Source: an uncultured Candidatus Saccharibacteria bacterium (GTDB lineage: Bacteria > Patescibacteriota > Saccharimonadia > Saccharimonadales > CAZDQS01). From it: a stretch of DNA of 64,000 bases. Below the pieces are notes generated by a model. That model did not search any database, was not told the DNA's origin, and worked only from the letters and a program-made list of their open reading frames with translations. The stretch spans positions 21,988-85,987 of the forward strand of contig CAZDQS010000003.1 of assembly GCA_964507855.1 (NCBI GenBank). The letters run 5' to 3'. The position numbers and the translations under genes were made by a program. Positions 31,002 through 42,243 of the stretch are shown piece after piece; the first letter of the stretch is position 1, and each line of letters starts with the position of its first letter.

Positions 31002-32030
31002 CTAGTACCAGAGTTTTGACATTGCAAAATATAGCTTGCGGTAGGCGAGCTCTAGCTTTGGCCACACTTTATAGCTGCTGCTCAAAGGGAGTTCGTAAGC
31101 AGGCATCATATGGGTTACGTCGCGGGTATATGCGGTCTTAAAGATGTAAATACCTTTCATTCGGCTGCGTTCATAGTCAGCCGGATTGGGAATACCGCCT
31201 AAGTCAAATGTGGTATAGCCACCTTGCTTCAGATTCTTGGCAATTTCCCACAACAGTAGCCGTGGTCCGTAATGAGCAGCTTTGCTGGTAACCGAAGCGC
31301 CGTCCTTGTACCACGCCATTGTGCCGGTTGCGTCCGTCACGACAATTGCACCGGCGATGACGTCATTATCATGTTTTGCAAAGAATAACTTCAGCTGTCC
31401 AGCTTGTCGGAAGCTTTCCCAAAACTTCATAACAAAGGTTTTGTTTCGTATTGAGAAGTCTTTGCGCTTGGAGGTGTCGCGCAGCAAAGCGTACATTGTT
31501 TCAAGATTATCAGTAGTTGGGTCAACCTCCTCAACCTGTACGCCGTCTTTTGTTGCACGGTTAAGTTCGTTGCGGGCACGCTTCTTCATGCCCGCCCGGA
31601 GCGCTTCAACAGATTGCCGCAGATCAATGCGCACGGTGTATTCGTACTGGGTTATGCGTGCCGGTTTCCAGCCCGCCTGTTCAAACATGCGCACTAAATC
31701 ATCGTTGTGCGCCGTACAGGACTCGAGTTTGCAGCAGATGTTGTTGCCGCGGACTTTCTTGACTTTTTCTGTTAGTTCCTTGAGCTCTTCAAGTGAAACG
31801 GGTACAAACCCTGGTATGAACAATACCGATCCAGCCGGCGTTCGGCGGCGAAAATATCGAACAGTACGGGTTGCTAGTGATATGTCGCCAGGCTTCCATG
31901 CAGATCGTTCACGCACCTTTGCCCAGCTGTCTGATTGGAGATAGTGTTCGTATGGTACAGCAACAGTAGCCGGTGCATCCGGTTTGTTGGCTTCGCTCTT
32001 GCTTGATACTACGGCCTCATGTGCTGTCAC
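31002..32030 (-). CDS. FemAB-family peptidoglycan aminoacyltransferase (tRNA-dependent)
   Basis: 342 aa with FemAB-like blocks (KKRARNELNRATKDGV, LFFAKHDNDVIAGAIVV, WYKDGAS, FDLGGIP, GIYIFK). Confidence 0.82.
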   Translation of the reverse strand: MTAHEAVVSSKSEANKPDAPATVAVPYEHYLQSDSWAKVRERSAWKPGDISLATRTVRYFRRRTPAGSVLFIPGFVPVSLEELKELTEKVKKVRGNNICCKLESCTAHNDDLVRMFEQAGWKPARITQYEYTVRIDLRQSVEALRAGMKKRARNELNRATKDGVQVEEVDPTTDNLETMYALLRDTSKRKDFSIRNKTFVMKFWESFRQAGQLKLFFAKHDNDVIAGAIVVTDATGTMAWYKDGASVTSKAAHYGPRLLLWEIAKNLKQGGYTTFDLGGIPNPADYERSRMKGIYIFKTAYTRDVTHMMPAYELPLSSSYKVWPKLELAYRKLYFAMSKLWY

Positions 32031-32131
32031 GTGCGCTTGTTCCTTAAACGTCTACTCCGGTATTCTCCGCCAATTATTAGCACTACCAGTACTTTTTTGC
32101 AAATAATCTGGAAAGGCCCGTATATAACAGA

Positions 32132-32160
32132 TTGAAAATAATTAAGTTTTTTGCTACACT
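32132..32160 (+). promoter_or_regulatory. candidate promoter for tRNA cluster (TTGAAA-N17-TACACT)
   Basis: Hexamers at 32132-32137 and 32155-32160. An 8-bp hairpin plus T-run (32168-32195) follows immediately. Confidence 0.4.
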
Positions 32161-32209
32161 TGCACCTGTTCTTCAGCTATTGAAGAACATTTTTTACAAC
32201 CAACTCGTT

Positions 32210-32285
32210 GCCGATGTAGCTCAGTGGCTAGAGCGGCTGTTTTGTAAACAGCGGGTCGTGGGTTCGAATCCCTCCATCGGCTCCA
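32210..32285 (+). tRNA. tRNA-Thr (anticodon UGU), CCA encoded
   Basis: Manual cloverleaf: acceptor GCCGATG/CATCGGC, D-arm GCTCAGTGGCTAGAGC, anticodon loop TTTGTAA, T-arm GGGTTCGAATCCC. Confidence 0.92.
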
Positions 32286-32375
32286 TGATTAGACGCAATG
32301 CGAGAGTGTCTAATCAAGCCTCGTGTGAGGTCTAGTGAGAGAGGTGTTATACTAGAGGCCAGAAAGGCCTCTTTA

Positions 32376-32461
32376 GCAGGGGTTGTGGAGCGGTCAAACA
32401 CGACAGACTGTAAATCTGTTGGCATTCGCCTTCGGGGGTTCGAATCCCTCCCCCTGCACCA
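32376..32461 (+). tRNA. tRNA-Tyr (anticodon GUA), long variable arm, CCA encoded
   Basis: Acceptor GCAGGGG/CCCCTGC, anticodon loop CTGTAAA, long variable arm, T-loop TTCGAAT. Confidence 0.9.
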
Positions 32462-32471
32462 TAAACTAAGA

Positions 32472-32497
32472 ACATCTGCCCGCGGCAGGTGTTTTTA
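32472..32497 (+). terminator. intrinsic terminator after tRNA-Tyr
   Basis: 9-bp stem ACATCTGCC/GGCAGGTGT with a short loop, then TTTTTAGTTTATTTT. Confidence 0.55.
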
Positions 32498-32505
32498 GTT
32501 TATTT

Positions 32506-32527
32506 TGGAGACGGGCTGGGATTCGAA
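32506..32527 (-). other. orphan tRNA 3'-end fragment (T-loop to CCA-like end), not a complete tRNA
   Basis: The minus strand reads TTCGAATCCCAGCCCGTCTCCA. No matching 5' acceptor or T-stem partner lies upstream. Confidence 0.4.
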
Positions 32528-32709
32528 CGACAACTGCCAGTGGCAGTTGGCCGCCCTTTAGCCCCGAAGGGGTCATTGTAGCGAAAGTATTTTTCTTTCG
32601 CGCAATGAGGTCCAATCCCCCCAAAAAAACCAAACAAAAACAACTTTCCATCCCTTATCCTGAGGTGTATATTTAGAAATAACTCATCAAGTAATAAAAA
32701 GTTTATTAG

Positions 32710-33192
32710 ATGTCTCATTTACTCCGGTCAGAAAGCGCTCATATACCACTCCTGCCGCCCGCACCCGTGCCTACAGTCGAAAGATCAGCCGAGATGGTAG
32801 GCTTGGGCAATTGGTACGCCCTGCGGCCTGATGATGTCCCGGGGGATGATAGGTTAATTGTTCTTGGCGAGAACCCAGAAAGGGCTATCGACAGATTTGC
32901 TAATGAACTTTCAGCAGAAGGGCCGATCAGACTGCCGAGCACGATCGACCTTATGTGTAAGGATAAGATTCCGGATATTTCAGCTTATCAGCGCATCATA
33001 GCCCTCGGCGAGTTTGCTTGCCACGTGGAACAGCTCGACACAGGCAATGCAGCATATTACGACGGCTTATTTAGGAGACTAGGTTACGCGGTTATCATGG
33101 CGCCATCTCTGTACGCAAGCAAGGCAGGTCCCATGCCGCCACGAGGCGAGCTAGTTTACTATTCAAAGAATCATTCTAATCTGTTAAAATAG
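32710..33192 (+). CDS. hypothetical protein (160 aa)
   Basis: Only long ORF in the gap between the tRNAs, with an AT-rich upstream region. No family recognised. Confidence 0.5.
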   Translation: MSHLLRSESAHIPLLPPAPVPTVERSAEMVGLGNWYALRPDDVPGDDRLIVLGENPERAIDRFANELSAEGPIRLPSTIDLMCKDKIPDISAYQRIIALGEFACHVEQLDTGNAAYYDGLFRRLGYAVIMAPSLYASKAGPMPPRGELVYYSKNHSNLLK

Positions 33193-33221
33193 ACCCGTTT
33201 GGAAAACTATTGGCTGCTAAT

Positions 33222-33290
<69 letters not shown>

Positions 33291-33296
<6 letters not shown>

Positions 33297-33410
33297 AAAC
33301 CGGACTTAAATTGGAATTGTCGCCCATTCGGGCGATTTTTCTTTGGTTGCGCGGAGCGCAAACCAAATATTTTCTTGGGGGGAATGGGATTTTGGCTCGC
33401 TGGATGCGAC
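33291..33410 (+). repeat. IR-A left copy (120 bp, perfect inverted repeat)
   Basis: Its reverse complement is identical to 34997-35116 (checked base by base). It starts with the last 6 nt of the tRNA and covers the last 34 codons plus the stop of the recombinase. Confidence 0.97.
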
Positions 33411-34826
33411 TACTTTTTTGTTTTCTAAAAACAGGTTCAACCCAAAGATTTCAATGAGCAAAGACTTTTTGGCGTTTTGGTCGGCGGAATTAGCGATTTT
33501 ACAGACAGAAAGTGCCTTATTGAGCCAATTTTGGAGCGGTTCAACCCAAACCAAATTGCCTAAATGTAAATCGCTAATTTGTTCCTCAATGGTTTTCTTT
33601 TGGCTCATAATTTCAGCTTTCTTTTGCGTGTAAATATCACGCTCCAAAACGCCGTCAAGAAAACCGTCCAGAAGTCTTTGTAATTTCTCGGACAAATGCG
33701 TGAGTTCGCCCCGCATACCGTCAATTTTGCCGTTTATCTGTGCTTTATCTGCTAATTCGTCCGCAGTAGCCCACTCACGCATTTTGTCCGCATATTCTTT
33801 GGGCAAAGTGAAGCCAGCCAACAGGTCGGATAACTGCTGATCTAAAAGCTCAGAACGAAGGGCAGGTTCAACACACTTCACAGTTTTGTTTTTACGGCTA
33901 CACCTGTAATAGACATAGTGGTGCGTGTTACCGTTTTTCTGCCGCTTCGTTTTGTTTTCAGCAGTTATCATCATTCCGCAACAGCAACGCAGTAGCCCGC
34001 AGTAGGCTTGCGGCTCTATCAAGCCTTTGGTGGGGTGGCTTCGTTGTTTTATGACGGCTTGGACTTTATCAAAAAGTTTCTTGCTAATAATAGGCGTGTG
34101 CTTACCTTCGTAAATCTCGCCACCATAAACGAAATGACCGTAATAAAACGGGTTTTTCAAGATATATTTAACTTTGTCTTTGCTGTATGGTTTGCCACCG
34201 CCAGTTTTAACGCCGCGCTCAAACAAATAATCTGATATATCTTGAAAAGTGCTTTGCCCCAAAGAATACAGAACAAAAATCGCTTCAACTAATTCGGCTT
34301 GGCGTTTATCTACTTTTACTACTTTGGCACGAGTGTCATTGTAGTAGCCGAGCGGAGCAACGCCTGGAAATTCGCCCCGCCGTACTTTCTGGCGAAGCCC
34401 ACGCTTGGTATTCTCGCTCAAATTATCTACATAGTATTTGCTCTGACCAAAAGCGATATTCAACATAAACTTGCCCTGACTGGTACTCTCAAACCAAAAG
34501 GTCTGAAACTTCAAGTCGGCAAGGTGGTTTTGGTCAAGCAAATAGATAATTTGTCCGCCGTCTATGCTATTGCGGGCAAGCCTATCAGGGTGCCACGCCA
34601 AAATGCCGTTAGCTTCGCCATTTTGTATGCGTTTTAGTACTTCGGCGAACTTCGGTCTGCCCGGAGTTTTGGCGGATTTCTTTTCAATAACAGTATCTAC
34701 CACGACTAAACCGTTATCTTTGGCATATTTCCGAAGTTCTGCCAGTTGTGCCTCAATGGACAAAACCTGCTTGTCCTCAACATCTGTACTCTTGCGAGCA
34801 TACAAAATATAGCGATTTTGGTTCAT
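33306..34826 (-). CDS. large serine recombinase (resolvase N-domain + recombinase domain + zinc ribbon + coiled coil)
   Basis: 506 aa from ATG 34826 (SD GGGAGG 9 nt upstream). Catalytic motif YARKSTDVEDKQVLSIEAQ, Cys cluster CGLLRCCCG...YYRCS, long helical C-terminus. Confidence 0.9.
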   Translation of the reverse strand: MNQNRYILYARKSTDVEDKQVLSIEAQLAELRKYAKDNGLVVVDTVIEKKSAKTPGRPKFAEVLKRIQNGEANGILAWHPDRLARNSIDGGQIIYLLDQNHLADLKFQTFWFESTSQGKFMLNIAFGQSKYYVDNLSENTKRGLRQKVRRGEFPGVAPLGYYNDTRAKVVKVDKRQAELVEAIFVLYSLGQSTFQDISDYLFERGVKTGGGKPYSKDKVKYILKNPFYYGHFVYGGEIYEGKHTPIISKKLFDKVQAVIKQRSHPTKGLIEPQAYCGLLRCCCGMMITAENKTKRQKNGNTHHYVYYRCSRKNKTVKCVEPALRSELLDQQLSDLLAGFTLPKEYADKMREWATADELADKAQINGKIDGMRGELTHLSEKLQRLLDGFLDGVLERDIYTQKKAEIMSQKKTIEEQISDLHLGNLVWVEPLQNWLNKALSVCKIANSADQNAKKSLLIEIFGLNLFLENKKVVASSEPKSHSPQENIWFALRATKEKSPEWATIPI

Positions 34827-34952
34827 AGAAATTACCTCCCAACTTAAAAGACCGCCTTGGTGCAACCAATTCAAGCAAGCCTGAACTGTCCAAGACGGTC
34901 ATTTAAGACCCTAAATAAAAACAGACTGCTTTTGTGAATTGGTTGCAACCTC

Positions 34953-34961
34953 ATTATAACA
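34953..34961 (-). promoter_or_regulatory. candidate extended -10 promoter (TGTTATAAT) for the recombinase
   Basis: The minus strand reads TGTTATAAT, about 120 nt upstream of the recombinase ATG and preceded by a small hairpin. Confidence 0.4.
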
Positions 34962-34996
34962 AAAAGCCGCCTATGGCGGGCAAAAACAAAAATGCG

Positions 34997-35116
34997 GTCG
35001 CATCCAGCGAGCCAAAATCCCATTCCCCCCAAGAAAATATTTGGTTTGCGCTCCGCGCAACCAAAGAAAAATCGCCCGAATGGGCGACAATTCCAATTTA
35101 AGTCCGGTTTTGGAGC
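34997..35116 (-). repeat. IR-A right copy (120 bp)
   Basis: Perfect reverse complement of 33291-33410. Its last 6 nt (TGGAGC) are also the first 6 nt of IR-B. Confidence 0.97.
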
Positions 35117-35376
35117 ATTTCTACCGATACGCTAGAACCTATTTTAGCAAAGACCAACAGATAAGAACAGATGTGAAATGGAAAAAAGAGGACAATTTGC
35201 GAAACCAGAAGTCAAACCCCGCCGCCTAGCGGGCAAGTCTGCCCAGCTAGCGCCCCGCCAGAAAAAGCCTTTGCATTTTTTGAGATTTCCCCCGCCGTAT
35301 TTTTTCTTTTTAGTTGAAAGGGTCGGAATTTTCTGTCGGTTCGCCTGCCAAAATTGGCAGAGGCGTCGGAGCTTCG
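35111..35376 (+). repeat. IR-B left copy (266 bp, perfect inverted repeat)
   Basis: Its reverse complement is identical to 40449-40714 (checked by eye along the full length). Contains hairpins at 35226-35250 and 35345-35360. Confidence 0.97.
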
Positions 35377-35401
35377 GAGGAAGACCTTATAAATAAGGAT
35401 A

Positions 35402-35430
35402 TTGAACTATCGATAGAGATGGAGTACTAT
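35402..35430 (+). promoter_or_regulatory. candidate promoter for the repeat-peptide operon (TTGAAC-N17-TACTAT)
   Basis: Hexamers at 35402-35407 and 35425-35430; 26 nt inside the IR-B boundary. Confidence 0.45.
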
Positions 35431-35463
35431 GTAAAATACAACGTATAGTAGTAAGGAGAGGTT

Positions 35464-35787
35464 ATGGAAAAGGGAACACAAATGTTATCAGATGTAAAAA
35501 CCGGTATTGCTTCAGACACGTGCTCACGTGTGCTCGAGGAGACCAAGGATGGTATTGCGTCAGAAACTTGTTCACGCAGCATTGAAGAGTACTTAAAGGT
35601 CGGTGCAGCAGCAATGACATGCTCACGAGTAATCGAAGCTAAGGTGGGCATCGCATCGGACACTTGCTCACGTGCCCTAGAAGAAGTTAAGAATGGGGCT
35701 GCGGCTGATACGTGCTCTCGCGTACTTGAGGACGCCGTAGAACAATCAGCTTCACTTGATCAGTATGTTAACGTATGGTCGAACTAG
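35464..35787 (+). CDS. tandem-repeat peptide/protein: 5 units of G(I/A)A(S/A)xTCSRx(L/I)E
   Basis: 107 aa with SD AAGGAGAGG. The five 15-17-aa units conserve TCSR using different synonymous codons. 13-nt overlap with the next gene. Confidence 0.7.
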   Translation: MEKGTQMLSDVKTGIASDTCSRVLEETKDGIASETCSRSIEEYLKVGAAAMTCSRVIEAKVGIASDTCSRALEEVKNGAAADTCSRVLEDAVEQSASLDQYVNVWSN

Positions 35788-36920
35788 GTCCTGAGTTCTG
35801 TCCGAATGCGAACGAACTAGCAGAGAACGTTACTAGACACTTTGAAGAAGGTGCAAACCGTGCTGAATGCGTAATAACTGGTCGGCGCGTTCTGTCCGCT
35901 GACTTCAAGCCCCCTACGAATCTTATGCCGAAAGGCACGGAAGAATGGGAGAACGACTGGTCTAGTCGCCATTTGCAGGCATATGTTTTTGATTCGATTG
36001 CAAGCACGATACAGCCTGGGCCACCGACACAAGACAAGTTAAACGCACAGACTCTCGAAAACCTAACCGACACTTTGGGCAGTCCCGACTATTTTCACGC
36101 ATATTGCGTTAGCAGAATGCTGGATCCTCAACGCGTCCTTAGACTAGCAAACGATTACCTTGAAGACTCAGCTGCATCGTACCACAAACAAAGCAAGGCA
36201 ATGCTTGGAGATGAATTTGGCTCTTTTCATGAAGAACAGTTTCAAGAAAGGCTGACCGCAGCAGTTACACAGGATGCAAATAAATATCCACATGAACGAA
36301 CCACAGGCGAAGTAGAGCGGGTAATTCGCGATCTCGGTCTTATGGCACTGGTTGATAGCTCCCGTGAATCGGCCATTGACCTTACCGTAAATGTTCCACA
36401 CCCAGAGAGTCGTACAAGTAGATTGTTTCTGGCTCGATCTAAAGGCATAGAGGCGTATCGTGGCGCGTTACATGCATTGGGTCACGCGGTATTTAGCGTA
36501 ATGGCTCCAAGAGTTGAGGATAATCTCGGCGTTAATATTGCGGCAACAGAAACTATTGCGTTTCAAGCGCAGCACGTGGCTCTGGATGGCGCGCCATCTG
36601 ATACTGCCGAATTTCTCCGATTCCTGCACCTTTATCAATCACGGCTATACGCTGTTCGTGCTATTCATGAGTCAATTAGACTTGAAAACCGTAGCCCAGA
36701 GCTTGAGACACTACAAGATTTAGGGCGCGAGCATCTTGGTCTTGTCGAGATAAGACCACATCAATTTAGGCCAAAATTAGTAGCTGTTGATTTTCTGATA
36801 GCGTTCTCAGAATATTTCCGCCAAGGTGAACTGTCGCCCGATTGGTCTGAGGTTTTAGAGCTTGCTCAAAACACAACCAATATCAAAATTACAAAGGATA
36901 TTTCACTAAAGACTAATTAG
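35775..36920 (+). CDS. hypothetical protein, gluzincin-peptidase-like with degenerate HExxH (HALGH)
   Basis: 381 aa. The segment ALHALGHAVF...(22 aa)...TETIAFQ resembles M3-type HEFGH...E spacing, but the catalytic Glu is Ala. Function uncertain. Confidence 0.7.
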   Translation: MVELGPEFCPNANELAENVTRHFEEGANRAECVITGRRVLSADFKPPTNLMPKGTEEWENDWSSRHLQAYVFDSIASTIQPGPPTQDKLNAQTLENLTDTLGSPDYFHAYCVSRMLDPQRVLRLANDYLEDSAASYHKQSKAMLGDEFGSFHEEQFQERLTAAVTQDANKYPHERTTGEVERVIRDLGLMALVDSSRESAIDLTVNVPHPESRTSRLFLARSKGIEAYRGALHALGHAVFSVMAPRVEDNLGVNIAATETIAFQAQHVALDGAPSDTAEFLRFLHLYQSRLYAVRAIHESIRLENRSPELETLQDLGREHLGLVEIRPHQFRPKLVAVDFLIAFSEYFRQGELSPDWSEVLELAQNTTNIKITKDISLKTN

Positions 36921-36957
36921 GCATTATAAGATTTAGAAAACAGAATTTATAATAAGT

Positions 36958-38796
36958 ATGATGATGACAAATAAACAAGATAGTCTGCATGCCATGCGTC
37001 ACAGCTTGGCACACATCATGGCTTCTGCAATAAAAAAGTTATGGCCAGAAGTTAAGTTCGGCGTTGGTCCGGTTGTAGAAAACGGGTTCTATTATGACGT
37101 TGATGTTAAAGGAACGAAAATCTCAGAAGGAGATTTTGATCGTATTGAAGCAGAGATGCAAAAGATCATCAAAGAAAACCAACCGTTCAAAAGATCCGAG
37201 AAAGTTATTGATAAGGCTATAAAATGGGCTAAAGATTCAAACCAGCCATACAAAGAAGAGCTTTTGAACGACCTTAAGCGTTCAGGTACTACAGTAGCCA
37301 AGGATCTCAATGAGGATGAAATAGGTACTTTCACAGAGGGTAGTAGTGAAGTAGACAGGGTGTCATTCTTTACAAACGGTGATTTTACAGATCTGTGCAG
37401 AGGGCCTCATGTAGATTCAACAGGTGAAGTAGGCAAGTTTAAATTGATGCGAATCGCTGGTGCGTACTGGCGAGGCAAAGATAATAATCCGCAGATGCAA
37501 CGTATTTATGGGGTAGCATTTGAAACAGACAAGGAGTTGCGCCAATACTTGAGCATGCTGGAAGAGGCAAAAAAACGCGATCATCGGAAACTTGGTAAAG
37601 AGTTAGAACTTTTCATGTTTCATGATACAGCTCCCGGAATGCCGTACTGGCTTCCAAAAGGTGTAGTTATATATAATCAACTCGTAGACTTTTGGCGCAA
37701 AGAGCATCAGATGAGAGATTATCAGGAGATTGTATCACCTATTCTGAATAAAAAAGAGCTTTATCAGACCTCTGGGCATTACGATCACTATTGGCAGGAA
37801 ATGTTTACTACTGAGGAAAATGAAGATGGCGAAGTTTATGGGGTAAAGGCTATGAATTGCCCAAACGCAATGGTCGTTTTTGGATCAAAGCAGCGATCAT
37901 ATCGTGATCTGCCGCTTAGGCTTAGCGACACAGACACACTGCACAGAAATGAACGTTCAGGTACATTGAATGGGCTATTGAGGGTTCGAGAATTCAGACA
38001 GGACGATGCGCATATCTTTGTCGAGCCCAACCAGATAAAAGAAGAATATGAAAAGATCCTTGAGATAACTGAAAAATTCTACTCGATTTTTAACATGTCA
38101 TACTCATTTAGACTCGGTACGCGGCCTGATAAATTCATGGGGGATGAAAAACTTTGGGATGAAGCAGAGTCGACACTTGAGGACATATTAAAAGATAGTG
38201 GAAAAGACTATTTTATCGAGGAGGGCGACGGCGCATTCTACGGGCCAAAGATAGATATCCTGATGAAAGATGCACTCGGTCGTTCATGGCAAATGGGAAC
38301 CATGCAATTGGACTTCCAGCAGCCTCTCAGATTTGACCTGAAATACACAGACAGAGATGGATTAGAGAAGACCCCAATTGTGATTCATAGAGTTATCTAC
38401 GGATCGCTGGAGCGTTTTATAGGTATACTTATTGAGCATTTAGCCGGTAAGTTTCCTGTTTGGCTTGCGCCGGAACAAGTTAGATTAATTACCGTTAATC
38501 AAGAGCCTCCAACAGTCGAATTCGCGAATAAGATGCTTGCAAGAGCTAGAGATTTGGGCGTACGAGCCAGTGTTGATAATAATAACGAATCAGTAGGCAA
38601 AAAGATTCGTCAAGCGGAGATTGAGAAAGTTCCATACACGATCGTAGTAGGCGAGCAAGAAATCGCGAGCAATGAGGTATTGCCCCGCATACGTAAAGAC
38701 CTAGTTGACGCTAAAGACGTAAAAAAAATTATGTCTGATGACTTCCTGAGACAGGTTGCGGAAGAATCGGCACTTCGCGTTACACCTTTTGCTTAA
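36958..38796 (+). CDS. thrS: threonine--tRNA ligase lacking the N-terminal TGS domain
   Basis: 612 aa. Editing motifs RHSLAH and CRGPH, MNCP, HRNERSG...RVREFRQDDAHIF, HRVIYGSLERF, and an anticodon-binding C-terminus. AT-rich with AGA codons. Confidence 0.93.
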   Translation: MMMTNKQDSLHAMRHSLAHIMASAIKKLWPEVKFGVGPVVENGFYYDVDVKGTKISEGDFDRIEAEMQKIIKENQPFKRSEKVIDKAIKWAKDSNQPYKEELLNDLKRSGTTVAKDLNEDEIGTFTEGSSEVDRVSFFTNGDFTDLCRGPHVDSTGEVGKFKLMRIAGAYWRGKDNNPQMQRIYGVAFETDKELRQYLSMLEEAKKRDHRKLGKELELFMFHDTAPGMPYWLPKGVVIYNQLVDFWRKEHQMRDYQEIVSPILNKKELYQTSGHYDHYWQEMFTTEENEDGEVYGVKAMNCPNAMVVFGSKQRSYRDLPLRLSDTDTLHRNERSGTLNGLLRVREFRQDDAHIFVEPNQIKEEYEKILEITEKFYSIFNMSYSFRLGTRPDKFMGDEKLWDEAESTLEDILKDSGKDYFIEEGDGAFYGPKIDILMKDALGRSWQMGTMQLDFQQPLRFDLKYTDRDGLEKTPIVIHRVIYGSLERFIGILIEHLAGKFPVWLAPEQVRLITVNQEPPTVEFANKMLARARDLGVRASVDNNNESVGKKIRQAEIEKVPYTIVVGEQEIASNEVLPRIRKDLVDAKDVKKIMSDDFLRQVAEESALRVTPFA

Positions 38797-39476
38797 GGGT
38801 ACTGTACTCTATCGCGTACAACCAGCGGTTCCTTTTCCCAGTCAGTTGGTGGGAGGTTTTCGCCAACAAACCAGCGTGCCTGTCGCGTGCTTGCCTCTCG
38901 TTGAAATAGTGAAGGAGCCTCCTCGTTTGTGCGGTGATCTACGAGTGATGGACATGTGTACCAGCAGCGAATCTGCTGCCTAGCAAAATACCATGCGATG
39001 CGACGTTCATCGCGCTCGGTTTCAGTAACAGAATCACACCATTCGAGCATTTCCGGAATAGACGCCACAGGTAATGCATAGGCAACGCCCCACCATGGGC
39101 CTTCCATCTCCAGCCAGGGTACATCGCTTTGCTTTACTCTATCCAATGCTGGCGCAACAATTTCTGCGTGTGGTCGTGGTCCGCCCAAATAAAATGAAAC
39201 TGGGCGGATCGGATCCACGCTTCGGAGTGCCGCCTCGGCATGAATCTGAAAATCCCGGCAAAGTATCGCATCATCTTGGACTACAAGATGCCATAGACAA
39301 GCGCGACCGTATGCGCGCCAAGCACGCGATGCTGTATCCCAAATTCCTTTTTCTTGATCCAAATGCACTTTAGCATCTGGGAGTTGTTTTTGAAGCTCGT
39401 CAACAAATTTCATTCGTGATGGATGTGCCATTATTGCAGTTGACAGGAAGGGCTTCTCACTCTCCAGTATTTTCAT
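38793..39476 (-). CDS. hypothetical protein (227 aa), possible GT-A-fold nucleotide-sugar transferase
   Basis: Clean ORF. The hint is only VVQDDAIL (DxD-like). Its stop overlaps the thrS stop within TTAA, and its start overlaps the upstream gene by 4 nt. Confidence 0.7.
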   Translation of the reverse strand: MKILESEKPFLSTAIMAHPSRMKFVDELQKQLPDAKVHLDQEKGIWDTASRAWRAYGRACLWHLVVQDDAILCRDFQIHAEAALRSVDPIRPVSFYLGGPRPHAEIVAPALDRVKQSDVPWLEMEGPWWGVAYALPVASIPEMLEWCDSVTETERDERRIAWYFARQQIRCWYTCPSLVDHRTNEEAPSLFQREASTRQARWFVGENLPPTDWEKEPLVVRDRVQYP

Positions 39477-40342
39477 GATGTTGCATCCTCAAAATCCACC
39501 AATATACCAACGCTCGCCCCTATTGGGTTATTTGGGCGAGGGAAAAGGACTCCCATATTAGTGCTAGTAGCACGAAGCTCTTTTTGACCATCCCAGGCAA
39601 ATGGGCCCTGTTGGAGGCGCACACCAGACTTAACGTGTGGAGCATAGTCAAATTGATCCGATTCGCGGATAATTAACTCTCTAGCTTGTGCGATAGGCGG
39701 TTTTGGCGTCAGTACCTCACCGGTATCCTTGATCCCCGTGAGCGATAAAAATCTACGGACGGCGCTTCGTGCAATAGCGGTGTTATCATCTTTATGATAG
39801 CCCAGTTCAAGGCAAACCCCAATCCTCCCGAGCTCGTACATATATGCATCTGATGTACCCGGTTCGACAGTCTCTAGACCATGAACGAACAGATCAGCGC
39901 CAAGAGACGTAGCCACATGCGACGATAAAACTGAAGCTATTGCAACTGACCCTAGGCCAATATCTTTATGCTCGTGTAGGTCTAAGCAGGCATCAGATTC
40001 GTTTAGAATATCCATTATTAAACGGGCTGACTTAAACTCGGGCTGAGGGCCGGTTTCAGTTTCGGTAGTGGTTAGGATTGTATTAAGATTCAAGTTCACT
40101 GCTCTTACGCCAATTTCATAAGCAGTAGGGTTAGCAATTATGATTGATAGCGAGCCTCTGTCTAGTTCTAGCTTTTCTCGGTCATTCAGTATATTCTCGA
40201 GAAAACGAACCGCAGACGGTTCGTCACCGTGCATTCCGCCAATAATCGCTACGTTTGGCCCTGAGACACCAGAATCAAGCACTTTAACTATAGGCGGCTC
40301 GATATTATATATCGCTTGGCCAGAGTTTTCCTTGTTTGGCAT
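39473..40342 (-). CDS. AstE/AspA-family zinc deacylase (succinylglutamate desuccinylase/aspartoacylase-like, M14-related)
   Basis: 289 aa with IIGGMHGDEP (His/Glu zinc ligands) and CLDLHEH (third His region). Confidence 0.78.
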   Translation of the reverse strand: MPNKENSGQAIYNIEPPIVKVLDSGVSGPNVAIIGGMHGDEPSAVRFLENILNDREKLELDRGSLSIIIANPTAYEIGVRAVNLNLNTILTTTETETGPQPEFKSARLIMDILNESDACLDLHEHKDIGLGSVAIASVLSSHVATSLGADLFVHGLETVEPGTSDAYMYELGRIGVCLELGYHKDDNTAIARSAVRRFLSLTGIKDTGEVLTPKPPIAQARELIIRESDQFDYAPHVKSGVRLQQGPFAWDGQKELRATSTNMGVLFPRPNNPIGASVGILVDFEDATS

Positions 40343-40448
40343 CCACTTTCATACTTCTGCCTACCCAATAATTATACGATTAATATGCATACATTGTAGC
40401 ATACTCCAGAGCTGAAGTTGCGGTTACGATAAGTTTTGCATGTCGCTG

Positions 40449-40714
40449 CGAAGCTCCGACGCCTCTGCCAATTTTGGCAGGCGAACCGACAGAAAATTCC
40501 GACCCTTTCAACTAAAAAGAAAAAATACGGCGGGGGAAATCTCAAAAAATGCAAAGGCTTTTTCTGGCGGGGCGCTAGCTGGGCAGACTTGCCCGCTAGG
40601 CGGCGGGGTTTGACTTCTGGTTTCGCAAATTGTCCTCTTTTTTCCATTTCACATCTGTTCTTATCTGTTGGTCTTTGCTAAAATAGGTTCTAGCGTATCG
40701 GTAGAAATGCTCCA
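40449..40714 (-). repeat. IR-B right copy (266 bp)
   Basis: Perfect reverse complement of 35111-35376. Ends with GCTCCA, identical to the tRNA-Thr(GGU) 3' end. Confidence 0.97.
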
Positions 40715-40718
40715 TTAG

Positions 40719-40747
40719 TTGATGCTATATGGTTTTCGTGGTATAAT
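40719..40747 (+). promoter_or_regulatory. candidate promoter (TTGATG-N17-TGgTATAAT) for PspC-domain gene/rpmG
   Basis: Hexamers at 40719-40724 and 40742-40747 with a TG extension. Begins 5 nt after the island boundary. Confidence 0.55.
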
Positions 40748-40764
40748 AATAAGTATTAATTCAG

Positions 40765-40989
40765 ATGGGTGGCCTTTACATGCAAAAGAAGCTCTACCGG
40801 AGTCGAACAGATAGGATGCTCACAGGACTTTGTGGGGGCATCGCGAAGTACCTCGGTGTCGATGCAACCTTGGTGCGTCTCGTGATGGTACTGCTGGAAT
40901 TTGCAACGGTTGGACTTCTTATCATCGGTTATTTCATCATAGCTATAATCGTTCCCCTGGAACCAGAAGGAGATAATATAAATGGCTAA
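40765..40989 (+). CDS. PspC-domain membrane protein
   Basis: 74 aa (or 69 aa from ATG 40780) with the motif LYRSRTDRMLTGLCGGIAKYLGVDATLVRL plus one TM segment. Confidence 0.8.
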   Translation: MGGLYMQKKLYRSRTDRMLTGLCGGIAKYLGVDATLVRLVMVLLEFATVGLLIIGYFIIAIIVPLEPEGDNING

Positions 40990-41185
40990 AAAAGGCGAGA
41001 AGCGAAAAACAATAGGTCTTGTGAGCGAAGAAAGCGGCCACAGGACATATTACACGCGCAAAAACACAATGAATACCCCCGATAAGCTACGCCTTCGCAA
41101 GTATGACCCAGTGCTGCGCAAGCACGTCTGGTACTCAGAAACCAAGAAAAACCTTGGCCGCAACGAAGTCAAGCCGAAGAAGTAA
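40982..41185 (+). CDS. rpmG: 50S ribosomal protein L33 (cysteine-free form)
   Basis: 67 aa with ...YYTRKNTMNTPDKLRLRKYDPVLRKHVWYSETKK. No Cys residues. Confidence 0.9.
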   Translation: MAKKGEKRKTIGLVSEESGHRTYYTRKNTMNTPDKLRLRKYDPVLRKHVWYSETKKNLGRNEVKPKK

Positions 41186-41204
41186 TAACGTTACTATATA
41201 AAAC

Positions 41205-41232
41205 AATCGCCTTCTCGTGAGGCGATTTTTTA
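41205..41232 (+). terminator. intrinsic terminator after rpmG
   Basis: Stem ATCGCCT/AGGCGAT with a 7-nt loop, then TTTTTTATT. Confidence 0.65.
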
Positions 41233-41233
41233 T

Positions 41234-41254
41234 TGGCAGGGGAGACAGGACTTG
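41234..41254 (-). repeat. 21-nt duplicate of the tRNA-Trp 3' end (T-loop to CCA)
   Basis: TGGCAGGGGAGACAGGACTTG is identical to 41399-41419, in direct orientation, 165 bp apart. Confidence 0.85.
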
Positions 41255-41368
41255 GCTCTTTATGCTCGCTCAAAGATTGATCTTTTCGCTCGGTCAAGCA
41301 AGCAAAACTCAAATGTCCACCGGACATTTTCGACCCAAGGGTTCAAATCTGTCCCGCCTCCAGAACAC

Positions 41369-41389
41369 AAAAACCACCAAAAGGTGGCT
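41369..41389 (-). terminator. candidate terminator downstream of tRNA-Trp
   Basis: The minus strand reads GCCACC-TTTT-GGTGGT followed by TTTTT. Confidence 0.45.
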
Positions 41390-41398
41390 TCCATGTTC

Positions 41399-41474
41399 TG
41401 GCAGGGGAGACAGGACTTGAACCTGCGACACCCGGTTTTGGAGACCGGTGCTCTACCAACTGAGCTACTCCCCT
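41399..41474 (-). tRNA. tRNA-Trp (anticodon CCA), CCA end encoded
   Basis: The reverse complement folds as: acceptor AGGGGAG/CTCCCCT, D-arm GCTCAGTTGGTAGAGC, anticodon loop CTCCAAA, T-arm GCAGGTTCAAGTCCTGT. Confidence 0.92.
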
Positions 41475-41583
41475 TTACTAAGCCGCTTACCGCGACTTTT
41501 CCGTCGGAGATAATTATAACTTACAAGTCTTCAAGGGTAAAACTTTTCAACAGATGGCGAATCTGTTATACAATAATATATCA

Positions 41584-42243
41584 ATGAGTAAGATCGTCCT
41601 GAACAAACCACTTCTGATTATGCTGTACGGCTTCCCGGGGGCAGGCAAAACACATTTTGCGCGCCAGCTTACTGAGACGGTCAGTGCTGCACATATCCAG
41701 GGAGATCGCATCCGTGCGCAGCTTTTTGAGCAGCCTCGCTACGACAAGCAAGAGAACGAGATTGTCAGCCACCTGATGGAATATATGGCAGAAGAGTTCC
41801 TCAACGCTGGCGTGAGTGTTGTTTTTGATGCCAATGCGCTAAGGCTTGTGCAGCGCCGCAGCTTGCGCGACATAGCCCGCCGGGCAAAAGCTGAGCACCT
41901 GCTGATATGGCTTCAGATTGACCAAGAAAGCGCCTATGGTCGTGTTTCCCGCCGTGACCGACGCCGTGCCGATGACAAATATGCTGCCCCGTACGACCAG
42001 AAATCGTTCCAGGCCTACATCGCCGCCATGCAGAACCCCCAGAATGAAGAATACGTCGTTATCAGCGGCAAACACACGTTCAATACCCAGCGTAGCGCTG
42101 TCGTGAAACGGCTCTACGAGCTAGGTCTTATCACAGCTGATAGCGCTTCTACCAACGTCGTCAAACCAGGACTCGTAAACTTAATACCCAATCCTGCCGC
42201 CGGCCGCGTCGACATGACGCGCCGGAATATCGTCATACGGTAA
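41584..42243 (+). CDS. P-loop ATPase/kinase (AAA_33 / zeta-toxin-like fold)
   Basis: Walker A GFPGAGKTHFA. Start taken at ATG 41584 (MSKIVLNKP...), with TAATAT 5 nt upstream. Confidence 0.75.
   Translation: MSKIVLNKPLLIMLYGFPGAGKTHFARQLTETVSAAHIQGDRIRAQLFEQPRYDKQENEIVSHLMEYMAEEFLNAGVSVVFDANALRLVQRRSLRDIARRAKAEHLLIWLQIDQESAYGRVSRRDRRRADDKYAAPYDQKSFQAYIAAMQNPQNEEYVVISGKHTFNTQRSAVVKRLYELGLITADSASTNVVKPGLVNLIPNPAAGRVDMTRRNIVIR

Follow-up and report, generated by a model that had tools for sequence, protein, structure and literature searches.

What kind of element carries a recombinase gene whose 3′ end lies inside the inverted repeat that flanks it? We addressed this question in a 64,000-nt stretch of DNA from an uncultured Candidatus Saccharibacteria bacterium (contig CAZDQS010000003.1), hereafter the window, in which a gene for a large serine recombinase (LSR) stands beside a tRNA-Thr gene between the two arms of an inverted repeat, IR-A. 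The original prediction had taken this arrangement for a self-contained 1.8-kb cassette. Related loci do not bear this out: IR-A makes up half of a duplicated attachment region larger than itself, and wherever both repeat pairs were mapped (45 loci) it abuts a second pair, IR-B, which encloses cargo genes. On the sequence, the repeat-flanked recombinase gene appears as one half of a larger mobile element inserted at a tRNA gene. This element is probably an LSR integrative element whose attachment region has been duplicated in inverted orientation, and which integrates through the copy overlapping the 3′ end of the recombinase gene.

Three attachment junctions at a tRNA gene

The element consists of two unique segments, M (promoter, leader and recombinase gene) and X (cargo), together with the two repeat pairs. 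Its features in the window are as follows.

33222-33296, + strand: tRNA-Thr(GGT) gene with encoded CCA (ARAGORN and Rfam tRNA), the left, B-type half of the target
33291-33424, + strand: left arm of IR-A (a), attL side, with three tandem terminator-like hairpins pointing from the core into the recombinase gene
33306-34826, - strand: LSR gene, 506 aa (Pfam and a 32-sequence alignment)
34983-35116, - strand: right arm of IR-A (a′), repeating the gene 3′ end in inverted form together with the three terminators, these facing leftward
34983-35379, core TGGAGC at 35111-35116: intact internal attachment region a′·core′·b, an inverted attP (junction comparison)
35111-35379, + strand: left arm of IR-B (b), with about 100 highly conserved core-proximal nt followed by GC-rich hairpins
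35380-40445, no strand: cargo segment X, 5,066 nt
40446-40714, + strand: right arm of IR-B (b′), attR, ending in the core GCTCCA at 40709-40714
40715-40747, + strand: native chromosomal flank (R), right half of the target, with a promoter TTGATG-17-TATAAT at 40719-40747

The IR-A arms (134 nt, 98% identity) match perfectly over 120 nt (33291-33410), and the 269-nt IR-B arms are 100% identical. The left arm of IR-B overlaps the right arm of IR-A by exactly 6 nt, the core GCTCCA, which also forms the last 6 nt of the tRNA-Thr gene (33291-33296): last acceptor base, discriminator and CCA. No long repeats besides IR-A and IR-B were found in the window. The core stands at three junctions, namely tRNA·GCTCCA·a at 33291 (the pattern of an attL), b′·GCTCCA·a on the reverse strand at 35116-35111 (the pattern of an intact, inverted attP) and b′·GCTCCA·R at 40709-40714 (the pattern of an attR). 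Since R starts with a good promoter, which drives a PspC-domain gene and rpmG, we take it to be native chromosome. These junctions and the native flank delimit, in a Saccharibacteria-like genome, a unit of 7,418 nt (33297-40714) inserted where tRNA-Thr(GGT) ends in CCA. Compared across the window and 36 genome loci, the three junctions point to distinct attP and attB sites that share a short identical core and have recombined into hybrid attL and attR sites.

The layout recurs widely. Among 163 fetched loci compared with themselves, 131 had both flanks available, and 117 of these (89%) carried a repeat flanking the recombinase gene, with an arm identity of at least 98% in 79, 95-98% in 17 and below 95% in 21. 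Both repeat pairs were present in 45 loci, the second pair enclosing 0.9-8 kb. Direct reading of the junctions in the 36 genome loci of this set gave the pattern tRNA·core·a, b′·core·a, b′·core·R; the nine metagenome loci contribute repeat pairs only. In all 45 the core is a tRNA 3′ end, and every target is a tRNA gene 3′ end, drawn from more than 15 tRNA types (including Thr, Gly, Lys, Phe, Gln, Leu, Arg, Glu, Val, Ile, Cys, Tyr, Ser, Ala and Met). Loci with this layout range from 90% down to 40% in protein identity and span many phyla of the candidate phyla radiation (CPR). An assembly artefact was rejected as its source, the layout occurring in more than 100 independent assemblies, one of which (L034, CP064994.1) has a record titled as a complete genome.

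The half-sites follow a logic known from other LSRs. Next to the core, b′ carries a family-wide motif, AAAATAGGTTC(G/T)AGC, and the internal attP copy of the window has the conserved b′ motif AAAATAGGTTCTAGC at 35131-35145. In left half-sites, to which this comparison applies, GGTTC starts 29 nt before the CCA end in b′ versus 25 nt in the tRNA T-loop, a constant offset of 4 nt. The outer DNA-binding domain of LSRs lies 4-5 bp nearer the centre on attB than on attP half-sites, the shift being 4 bp for the SPbeta integrase (PMC11722253). Because the GGTTC offset equals this shift, we assign the tRNA end to the B type and b′ to the P type; the internal attP copy retains the full conserved P-type motif. 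We also considered b′ as a degenerate tRNA and rejected this, GGTTC being the only motif in common. A mirror-image GAACC motif that might define the right half-site was sought in the a arm, where no convincing symmetry emerged.

These junctions bear directly on whether the segment a-M-a′ moves alone, as an element resembling an insertion sequence with 120-nt terminal inverted repeats, its neighbouring cargo being unrelated. Such a cassette would have its own promoter, leader, gene and terminators; many database contigs of the family measure only 1.6-2.5 kb, and at one locus (L138) the recombinase gene lies between two convergent tRNA genes with no obvious b arm. Yet in 45 loci the second repeat pair abuts the first through the common core, and the outer ends of IR-A are a tRNA end on one side and the b arm with its b′ motif on the other, which is the junction logic of site-specific recombination and not that of transposon ends. 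The insertion sites are not unrelated sequences, being always tRNA 3′ ends, and no direct target duplication was found beyond the shared core. Recombination between inverted sites, moreover, yields inversion and not excision, and the numerous short contigs are of the kind expected from assembly breaks at repeats longer than the k-mer. We therefore regard an autonomous cassette as very unlikely.

Recombinase gene, terminators and leader RNA

The recombinase gene runs from an ATG at 34826 to a TAA at 33308-33306. Its product has an N-terminal resolvase domain (PF00239, E = 3.5e-25), in which R11 and S13 of the Arg-x-Ser motif are invariant among 32 homologues, followed by a Recombinase domain (PF07508, E = 8e-20). 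The zinc-ribbon family PF13408 scores 24.4 bits, just below its cutoff of 25.3, and five cysteines (C276, C281, C283, C309 and C318) are invariant in the 32-sequence alignment. In the LSR family, the zinc-ribbon domain bears an inserted coiled-coil motif that governs directionality. A PDB search gave weak matches, the closest solved structure being the SPbeta integrase with an E-value of only 1e-9. More than 7,900 homologous proteins were found at E < 1e-20, restricted by their record titles to Patescibacteria/CPR, including Saccharibacteria, Parcubacteria-group phyla and Moranbacteria. The viral contigs of IMG/VR hold almost no close relatives (best 41% identical), which sets the protein apart from typical phage integrases. 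Homologues labelled ‘Pin-like invertase’ in one database source carry a generic name: small serine invertases have about 190 aa, a C-terminal helix-turn-helix and sites of about 26 bp, as against 506 aa, LSR C-terminal domains and arms of 100-450 bp here. Beside the recombinase gene we found no other gene common to the elements, including one for a recombination directionality factor; such factors are diverse and may be encoded elsewhere.

As originally described, the last 34 codons and the stop of the gene lie within the left arm of IR-A, making the right arm an inverted copy of the gene 3′ end. The T-run in both a copies of the window is 1 nt shorter than in relatives, which shifts the reading frame, so that the coding region of the window recombinase ends 10 nt short of the core. 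The open reading frame (ORF) of most relatives continues through the core, and most of 120 database homologues consequently end in translated antisense tRNA (…LEPRSGLEPETSSLPWMRSTN), while 11 of the 120 end in translated b instead (…LEHFYRNARTHF…). The antisense-tRNA tails comprise 20-100 C-terminal residues (…GLEPET…, …GFEPTT…) on most homologues in the set P0001-P0120. They are an annotation artefact of ORFs that cross the attachment core, and they pose a problem for the many database ‘recombinase’ proteins that bear them.

The same arms hold the transcription terminators. The first hairpin with its T-run, proposed to double as the tRNA-Thr terminator, was called a + strand terminator (33319-33336), and its counterpart in the right arm is called on the - strand at 35088-35071, facing leftward as had been expected. 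The second hairpin (33342-33367) folds as earlier described, and both are kept by compensatory changes in 24 related elements. The count of two hairpins per IR-A copy fell one short: a third, with a T-run, lies at about 33394-33413 (T-run to about 33419) and occurs in each of the 24 aligned elements with differing sequence. Together the three hairpins, each with a T-run behind it, lie antisense across the DNA encoding the last ~45 recombinase residues. The b arms add terminator-like sites that face out of the cargo, at 35237-35218 on the - strand in the left arm and at 40588-40607 on the + strand in the right. Leftward cargo transcription thus encounters five terminator-like hairpins ahead of the recombinase promoter. 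A hairpin GCCCGCC-ATA-GGCGGC with a T-run (34981-34961) precedes the -10 element and, judging from its sequence, blocks read-in from upstream. The suggestion that the gene is insulated in either orientation holds up well: both ends of its segment carry the same gene 3′ end and inward-facing terminators, and copies in the opposite orientation, with the promoter side adjoining the tRNA, exist in three lineages (L084, L094/L093 and L148). The gene would accordingly be intact and shielded from outside transcription either way round.

The two a copies are identical within a locus, and the region next to the core differs strongly between loci. Arms thus appear to evolve in concert, down to the 1-nt deletion common to both window copies. 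This pattern is also what would be seen if the repeat were passive, a single accidental duplication maintained by RecA-dependent gene conversion of 100-450-bp repeats, with no role in the life cycle and with flipped forms as by-products of homologous recombination. Apart from concerted evolution, this reading draws on the 21 loci in which the arms have decayed to 80-94% identity and the recombinase ORF remains intact, and on arm lengths that vary widely across loci (a 58-173 nt, b 100-420 nt). We consider it quite unlikely: the layout has been kept at 40-90% protein identity through many CPR phyla and many independent integrations, the internal copy keeps its full P-type motif, and derivatives with a single attP should replace a useless repeat, yet 89% of loci keep it.

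Upstream of the coding region, the recombinase transcript has the following features.

34961-34953, - strand: extended -10 promoter TGTTATAAT (within 34953-34981), its position conserved in relatives
34835-34952, - strand: structured leader of the recombinase mRNA, with helices P1 and P3 and a Shine-Dalgarno sequence GGGAGG at 34840-34835

The extended -10 is where the original prediction placed it, and at the same position relatives read TGGTAAAAT or TGATATATACT. The 13-bp long-range stem proposed for the 5′ untranslated region is also real: this helix, P1 (34947-34935 with 34873-34861), shows compensatory changes at 10 of 12 pairs and 96% of cells paired in 36 sequences. The leader is more complex than had been proposed, however, since a second covarying helix, P3 (34904-34890 with 34860-34846; compensatory changes at 9 of 14 pairs in the same 36 sequences), crosses P1. 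Taken together, P1 and P3 have 97% of cells paired, versus about 40% when partners are slid by 1-3 columns, and none of 500 shuffles reached the observed value. From the alignment, the two helices would coexist as a pseudoknot or represent alternative folds. The 3′ strand of P1 (34867-34873) can alternatively pair with a conserved GUACAAnUUnGG upstream (34882-34888), and the minimum free energy fold picks this alternative, which is suggestive of a switch and not of a static pseudoknot. The 3′ strand of P3, with a UUUAAGUU tail, terminates just ahead of the Shine-Dalgarno sequence.

Searching Rfam 15 over 32000-42000 at E ≤ 1 returned tRNAs only, with no family match for the leader or the b arm; the conserved, covarying motif constitutes a new leader RNA. 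Certain Parcubacteria-type members have no leader at all. The palindrome GGTTGCAACC, for which a role in autoregulation had been proposed, is present at 34950-34941 but specific to the window; its absence from relatives leaves that role without comparative support, and it is apparently incidental. A small ORF starting from the promoter hairpin (MAGKNKNAV...) was dismissed because its start codon is not conserved.

Candidate free form, flipped isomers and a proposed life cycle

Related contigs reveal further states of the element. In a 12,034-nt contig (L125), M (1,518 nt) has a complete 448-bp copy of b′·core·a at each end, the two being 100% identical. From the right arm a 5,612-nt cargo runs back to the left arm, so that the sequence repeats directly every 8,026 nt, and no tRNA gene is present. 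This contig looks like a candidate free circle of ~8 kb with two inverted attachment regions. In five further contigs from separate samples (L202-L206), whose recombinase is 91% identical, the gene 3′ end reads into b and not into a tRNA.

Such anatomy would also allow a fold-back, single-stranded form, in which the element would be transferred as single-stranded DNA (natural competence being one route) and the inverted copies pair into a double-stranded attP stem. The anatomy is what speaks for it, as the copies would make a stem of ~400 bp with a complete attP, and a strand-specific intermediate could account for the bias in the orientation of M described below; the attP hairpins of CTX phage and the attC sites of integrons are analogues of such a stem. 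Serine recombinases, however, cut both strands of both partners, so that recombination at the stem would leave hairpin-capped chromosome ends. Evidence for a single-stranded stage is absent, and L125 assembled as ordinary duplex sequence. Of the explanations discussed here, we give this one hardly any weight.

The flipped copies of M raise another possibility, that the recombinase acts mainly as an invertase, flipping M, X or both to switch expression (of the recombinase itself, through convergence with or read-through from the tRNA promoter, or of the cargo), integration being ancient and now rare. Both orientations of M do exist, the arms are near-identical in most loci, and the arm offers no terminators to the transcript of a flipped recombinase gene, which would continue through it into b and the cargo. 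The gene would also sit inside its own invertible segment, like hin in the Salmonella H segment. Against a dedicated switch, the common orientation of M outnumbers the other by ~30-60 to 1, the promoter lies inside M so that flipping gives no direct on/off control, and terminators insulate both modules. Many tRNA genes and unrelated cargo require repeated integration, and known LSRs do not recombine attL with attP (PMC11722253). We thus see the switch as an unlikely account of the element.

Our preferred reading, integration of an element with two inverted attP copies, would work as follows. The free form would be a circle in which two inverted ~400-bp b′·core·a copies separate M and X. The LSR would join the attP copy overlapping the 3′ end of its own gene to a tRNA end that acts as attB, the catalysis and the position of the crossover both being predicted. 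Integration would split that copy into the left part of IR-A (tRNA·a, attL) and the right part of IR-B (b′·R, attR), leaving the second copy whole, with the recombinase promoter on one side and the cargo on the other. On this model, the recombinase gene ends within an inverted repeat because the integrating attP copy overlaps it and the second copy persists. The predicted empty site is CTTCGGCTCCATTAGTTGATGC. The terminators of a would end the tRNA transcript at attL and, at the internal copy, shield the recombinase promoter from cargo transcription; the b arms would stop transcription leaving the cargo, including ahead of rpmG. Since the arms are identical, M, and presumably X as well, would be invertible without damage to genes.

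Beyond this, it is possible, if doubtful, that the internal inverted attP plays an active role in a life cycle new for serine integrases. The free form would then be a two-attP circle of the 2-micron type, and in the integrated state the intact internal copy could provide directionality control without a protein factor, module shuffling, or cis-preferential site choice by a recombinase whose final codons coincide with the site. If true, this would make the element a new class of mobile element shaping CPR genomes and carrying genes for aminoacyl-tRNA synthetases and defence.

Several observations weigh against the integrative reading with two inverted attP copies. Two equivalent copies should give both orientations of M about equally, and the skew observed needs selection or a cis-preference. 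Excision is unexplained, as no directionality factor accompanies the recombinase. The repeat is not required for keeping the recombinase gene, the ORFs being intact where repeats have decayed to 80-93% identity, and a test for association between decayed repeats and broken recombinase genes found none. The empty tRNA-Thr·R site of this species was not recovered, in a metagenome scan that targeted relatives and included no empty-site search. The first 53 nt of L125 do not fit a perfect wrap, and the contig could be a tandem array or a graph walk instead of a circle. The flipped isomers derive from short-read assemblies across repeats of 105-135 nt; for L084 the k-mer of 141 exceeds the 135-nt repeat. 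Lastly, L148 is not a simple flip of L144: the two share a 4.4-kb chromosomal flank and M, each 100% identical, with M inverted between them, whereas the outer portion of the inner arm, b and the cargo are not the same.

We tried to derive L148 from L144 as a simple flip or through homologous exchange between two copies, and neither single-step model fits. The locus is nevertheless dynamic, given the same flank and M, the inversion of M, and the changed arm, b and cargo. In L144 (3487-3598), both b arms lack the core-proximal ~110 nt including the P-type motif, a truncation identical in the two inverted copies; this stretch is present in L148 (8540-8730) at the same chromosomal site.

Other loci show more complex arrangements. 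In L138 (149-2023), the recombinase cassette lies between convergent tRNA-Ala genes (CGC on the + strand, TGC on the - strand), and its 68-nt arms reach neither; from its layout, this would be the product expected if the internal attP recombined with a second tRNA gene. A second b′-like arm takes the place of the tRNA in L026, L030 and L040, an arrangement that suggests tandem accretion. In L040 (7400-7748), the cargo has a complete a·core·b on both sides, with a remnant of a second recombinase 3′ end upstream and no tRNA nearby, which looks like a decayed tandem or circle-derived arrangement in the chromosome. L017 (5256-7068) has a third inverted-repeat pair (211 nt, 98.6%) that abuts the outer b arm without a b′ motif, making a chain of three segments.

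Cargo and comparison with known systems

Segment X of the window holds five ORFs.

35464-35787: repeat protein, 107 aa, the first cargo gene
35775-36920: 381-aa ORF
36958-38796: threonyl-tRNA synthetase, complete and of low GC content
38793-39476, - strand: 227-aa ORF
39473-40342, - strand: AstE/AspA-like protein

The threonyl-tRNA synthetase gene has a GC content of 0.39-0.44 versus ~0.50 nearby. Even where a, b and M of two elements are 84-91% identical, their cargo is wholly different. Recurrent families among 96 cargo ORFs are DNA methylases, restriction enzymes, HAD and NUDIX hydrolases, and aminoacyl-tRNA synthetases; the last, of several classes, occur for example in L009, L013 and L019, so that the synthetase of the window is part of a pattern. 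In the 107-aa ORF, which matches no Pfam family, a G(I/A)A(S/A)(D/E)TCSR-type unit occurs about five times in succession. The first ~100 nt of b past the half-site motif (35111-35215 and 40610-40714) are more than 95% conserved despite the unrelated cargo. They include the start of a short ORF (MEKRGQFAKP…), beyond which the frame is not conserved, and could represent a promoter, an RNA or accessory binding sites.

Outside the element, the last 21 nt of tRNA-Trp (minus strand) are perfectly repeated in direct orientation (41234-41254 and 41399-41419), 165 nt from the gene, with a tRNA-like 3′ fragment, GGTTCAAATCTGTCCCGCCTCCA, on the + strand between the copies (~41331-41353). This region may be the scar of another integrative element.

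The protein family and its attP/attB logic are already known. In the searchable literature we found no description of a duplicated inverted attP, of the overlap of gene end, terminators and site, of CCA-end targeting across many tRNAs, of the leader RNA or of restriction to CPR. The layout is apparently undescribed, and there is a real chance that the duplication reflects a new mechanism. As a conserved and widespread layout, it is new for serine-integrase elements in its duplicated inverted attachment region, its gene 3′ end and terminators overlapping the site, and its invertible modules. It provides dozens of natural attP/attB pairs for a deep-branching integrase clade that recognizes the T-loop and CCA end of tRNA genes, which are useful for studies of site recognition and possibly for integrase toolkits. 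It also raises the question of directionality, that is, how excision and site choice are controlled without a visible directionality factor. Finally, it identifies a vehicle of gene flux in CPR for restriction-modification systems and, repeatedly, aminoacyl-tRNA synthetases.

Among known systems, the LSRs of phages and integrative elements (phiC31, Bxb1, A118/LI, TP901-1 and SPbeta SprA) share the set of Resolvase, Recombinase and zinc-ribbon domains, a gene next to attP, and recombination of attP with attB into attL and attR through a short common core; the likeness to SPbeta extends to a P-type half-site motif 4 nt further from the centre than the B-type one. Unlike them, the present family is distant in sequence (E = 1e-9 to SPbeta), resides in Patescibacteria chromosomes and is nearly absent from viral contigs. 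It also targets the extreme 3′ CCA end of many tRNA genes and has a second, inverted, intact attP and no evident directionality factor gene.

The LSRs of Tn4451 (TnpX), Tn5397 (TndX) and SCCmec (CcrAB) likewise move a small island with variable cargo via a circular intermediate, but their circles contain a single joint site, and their inverted repeats are short or lacking; we know of none among such islands and transposons with a duplicated inverted attachment region or a tRNA CCA-end target. Hin, Gin and Cin (Salmonella H and Mu G segments) resemble the element in that a serine recombinase gene may sit in its own repeat-bounded invertible segment, and in the Mu G segment and in shufflons the 3′ ends of genes lie inside repeats, so that inversion preserves or swaps C-termini. 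These invertases differ in having ~190 aa, 26-bp sites, Fis with an enhancer and no integration, as opposed to a 506-aa LSR, 100-450 bp arms and a skewed orientation.

The 2-micron plasmid of yeast offers a further parallel, and L125 in particular invites the comparison: a circle split into two unique segments by long inverted repeats. In the plasmid, the FLP target FRT lies in each of the 599-bp inverted repeats, the recombinase gene occupies one segment, and inversion isomers occur. The plasmid, however, is eukaryotic and self-replicating, and its tyrosine recombinase FLP serves inversion for copy-number amplification, whereas the element described here integrates and has no replication genes in view.

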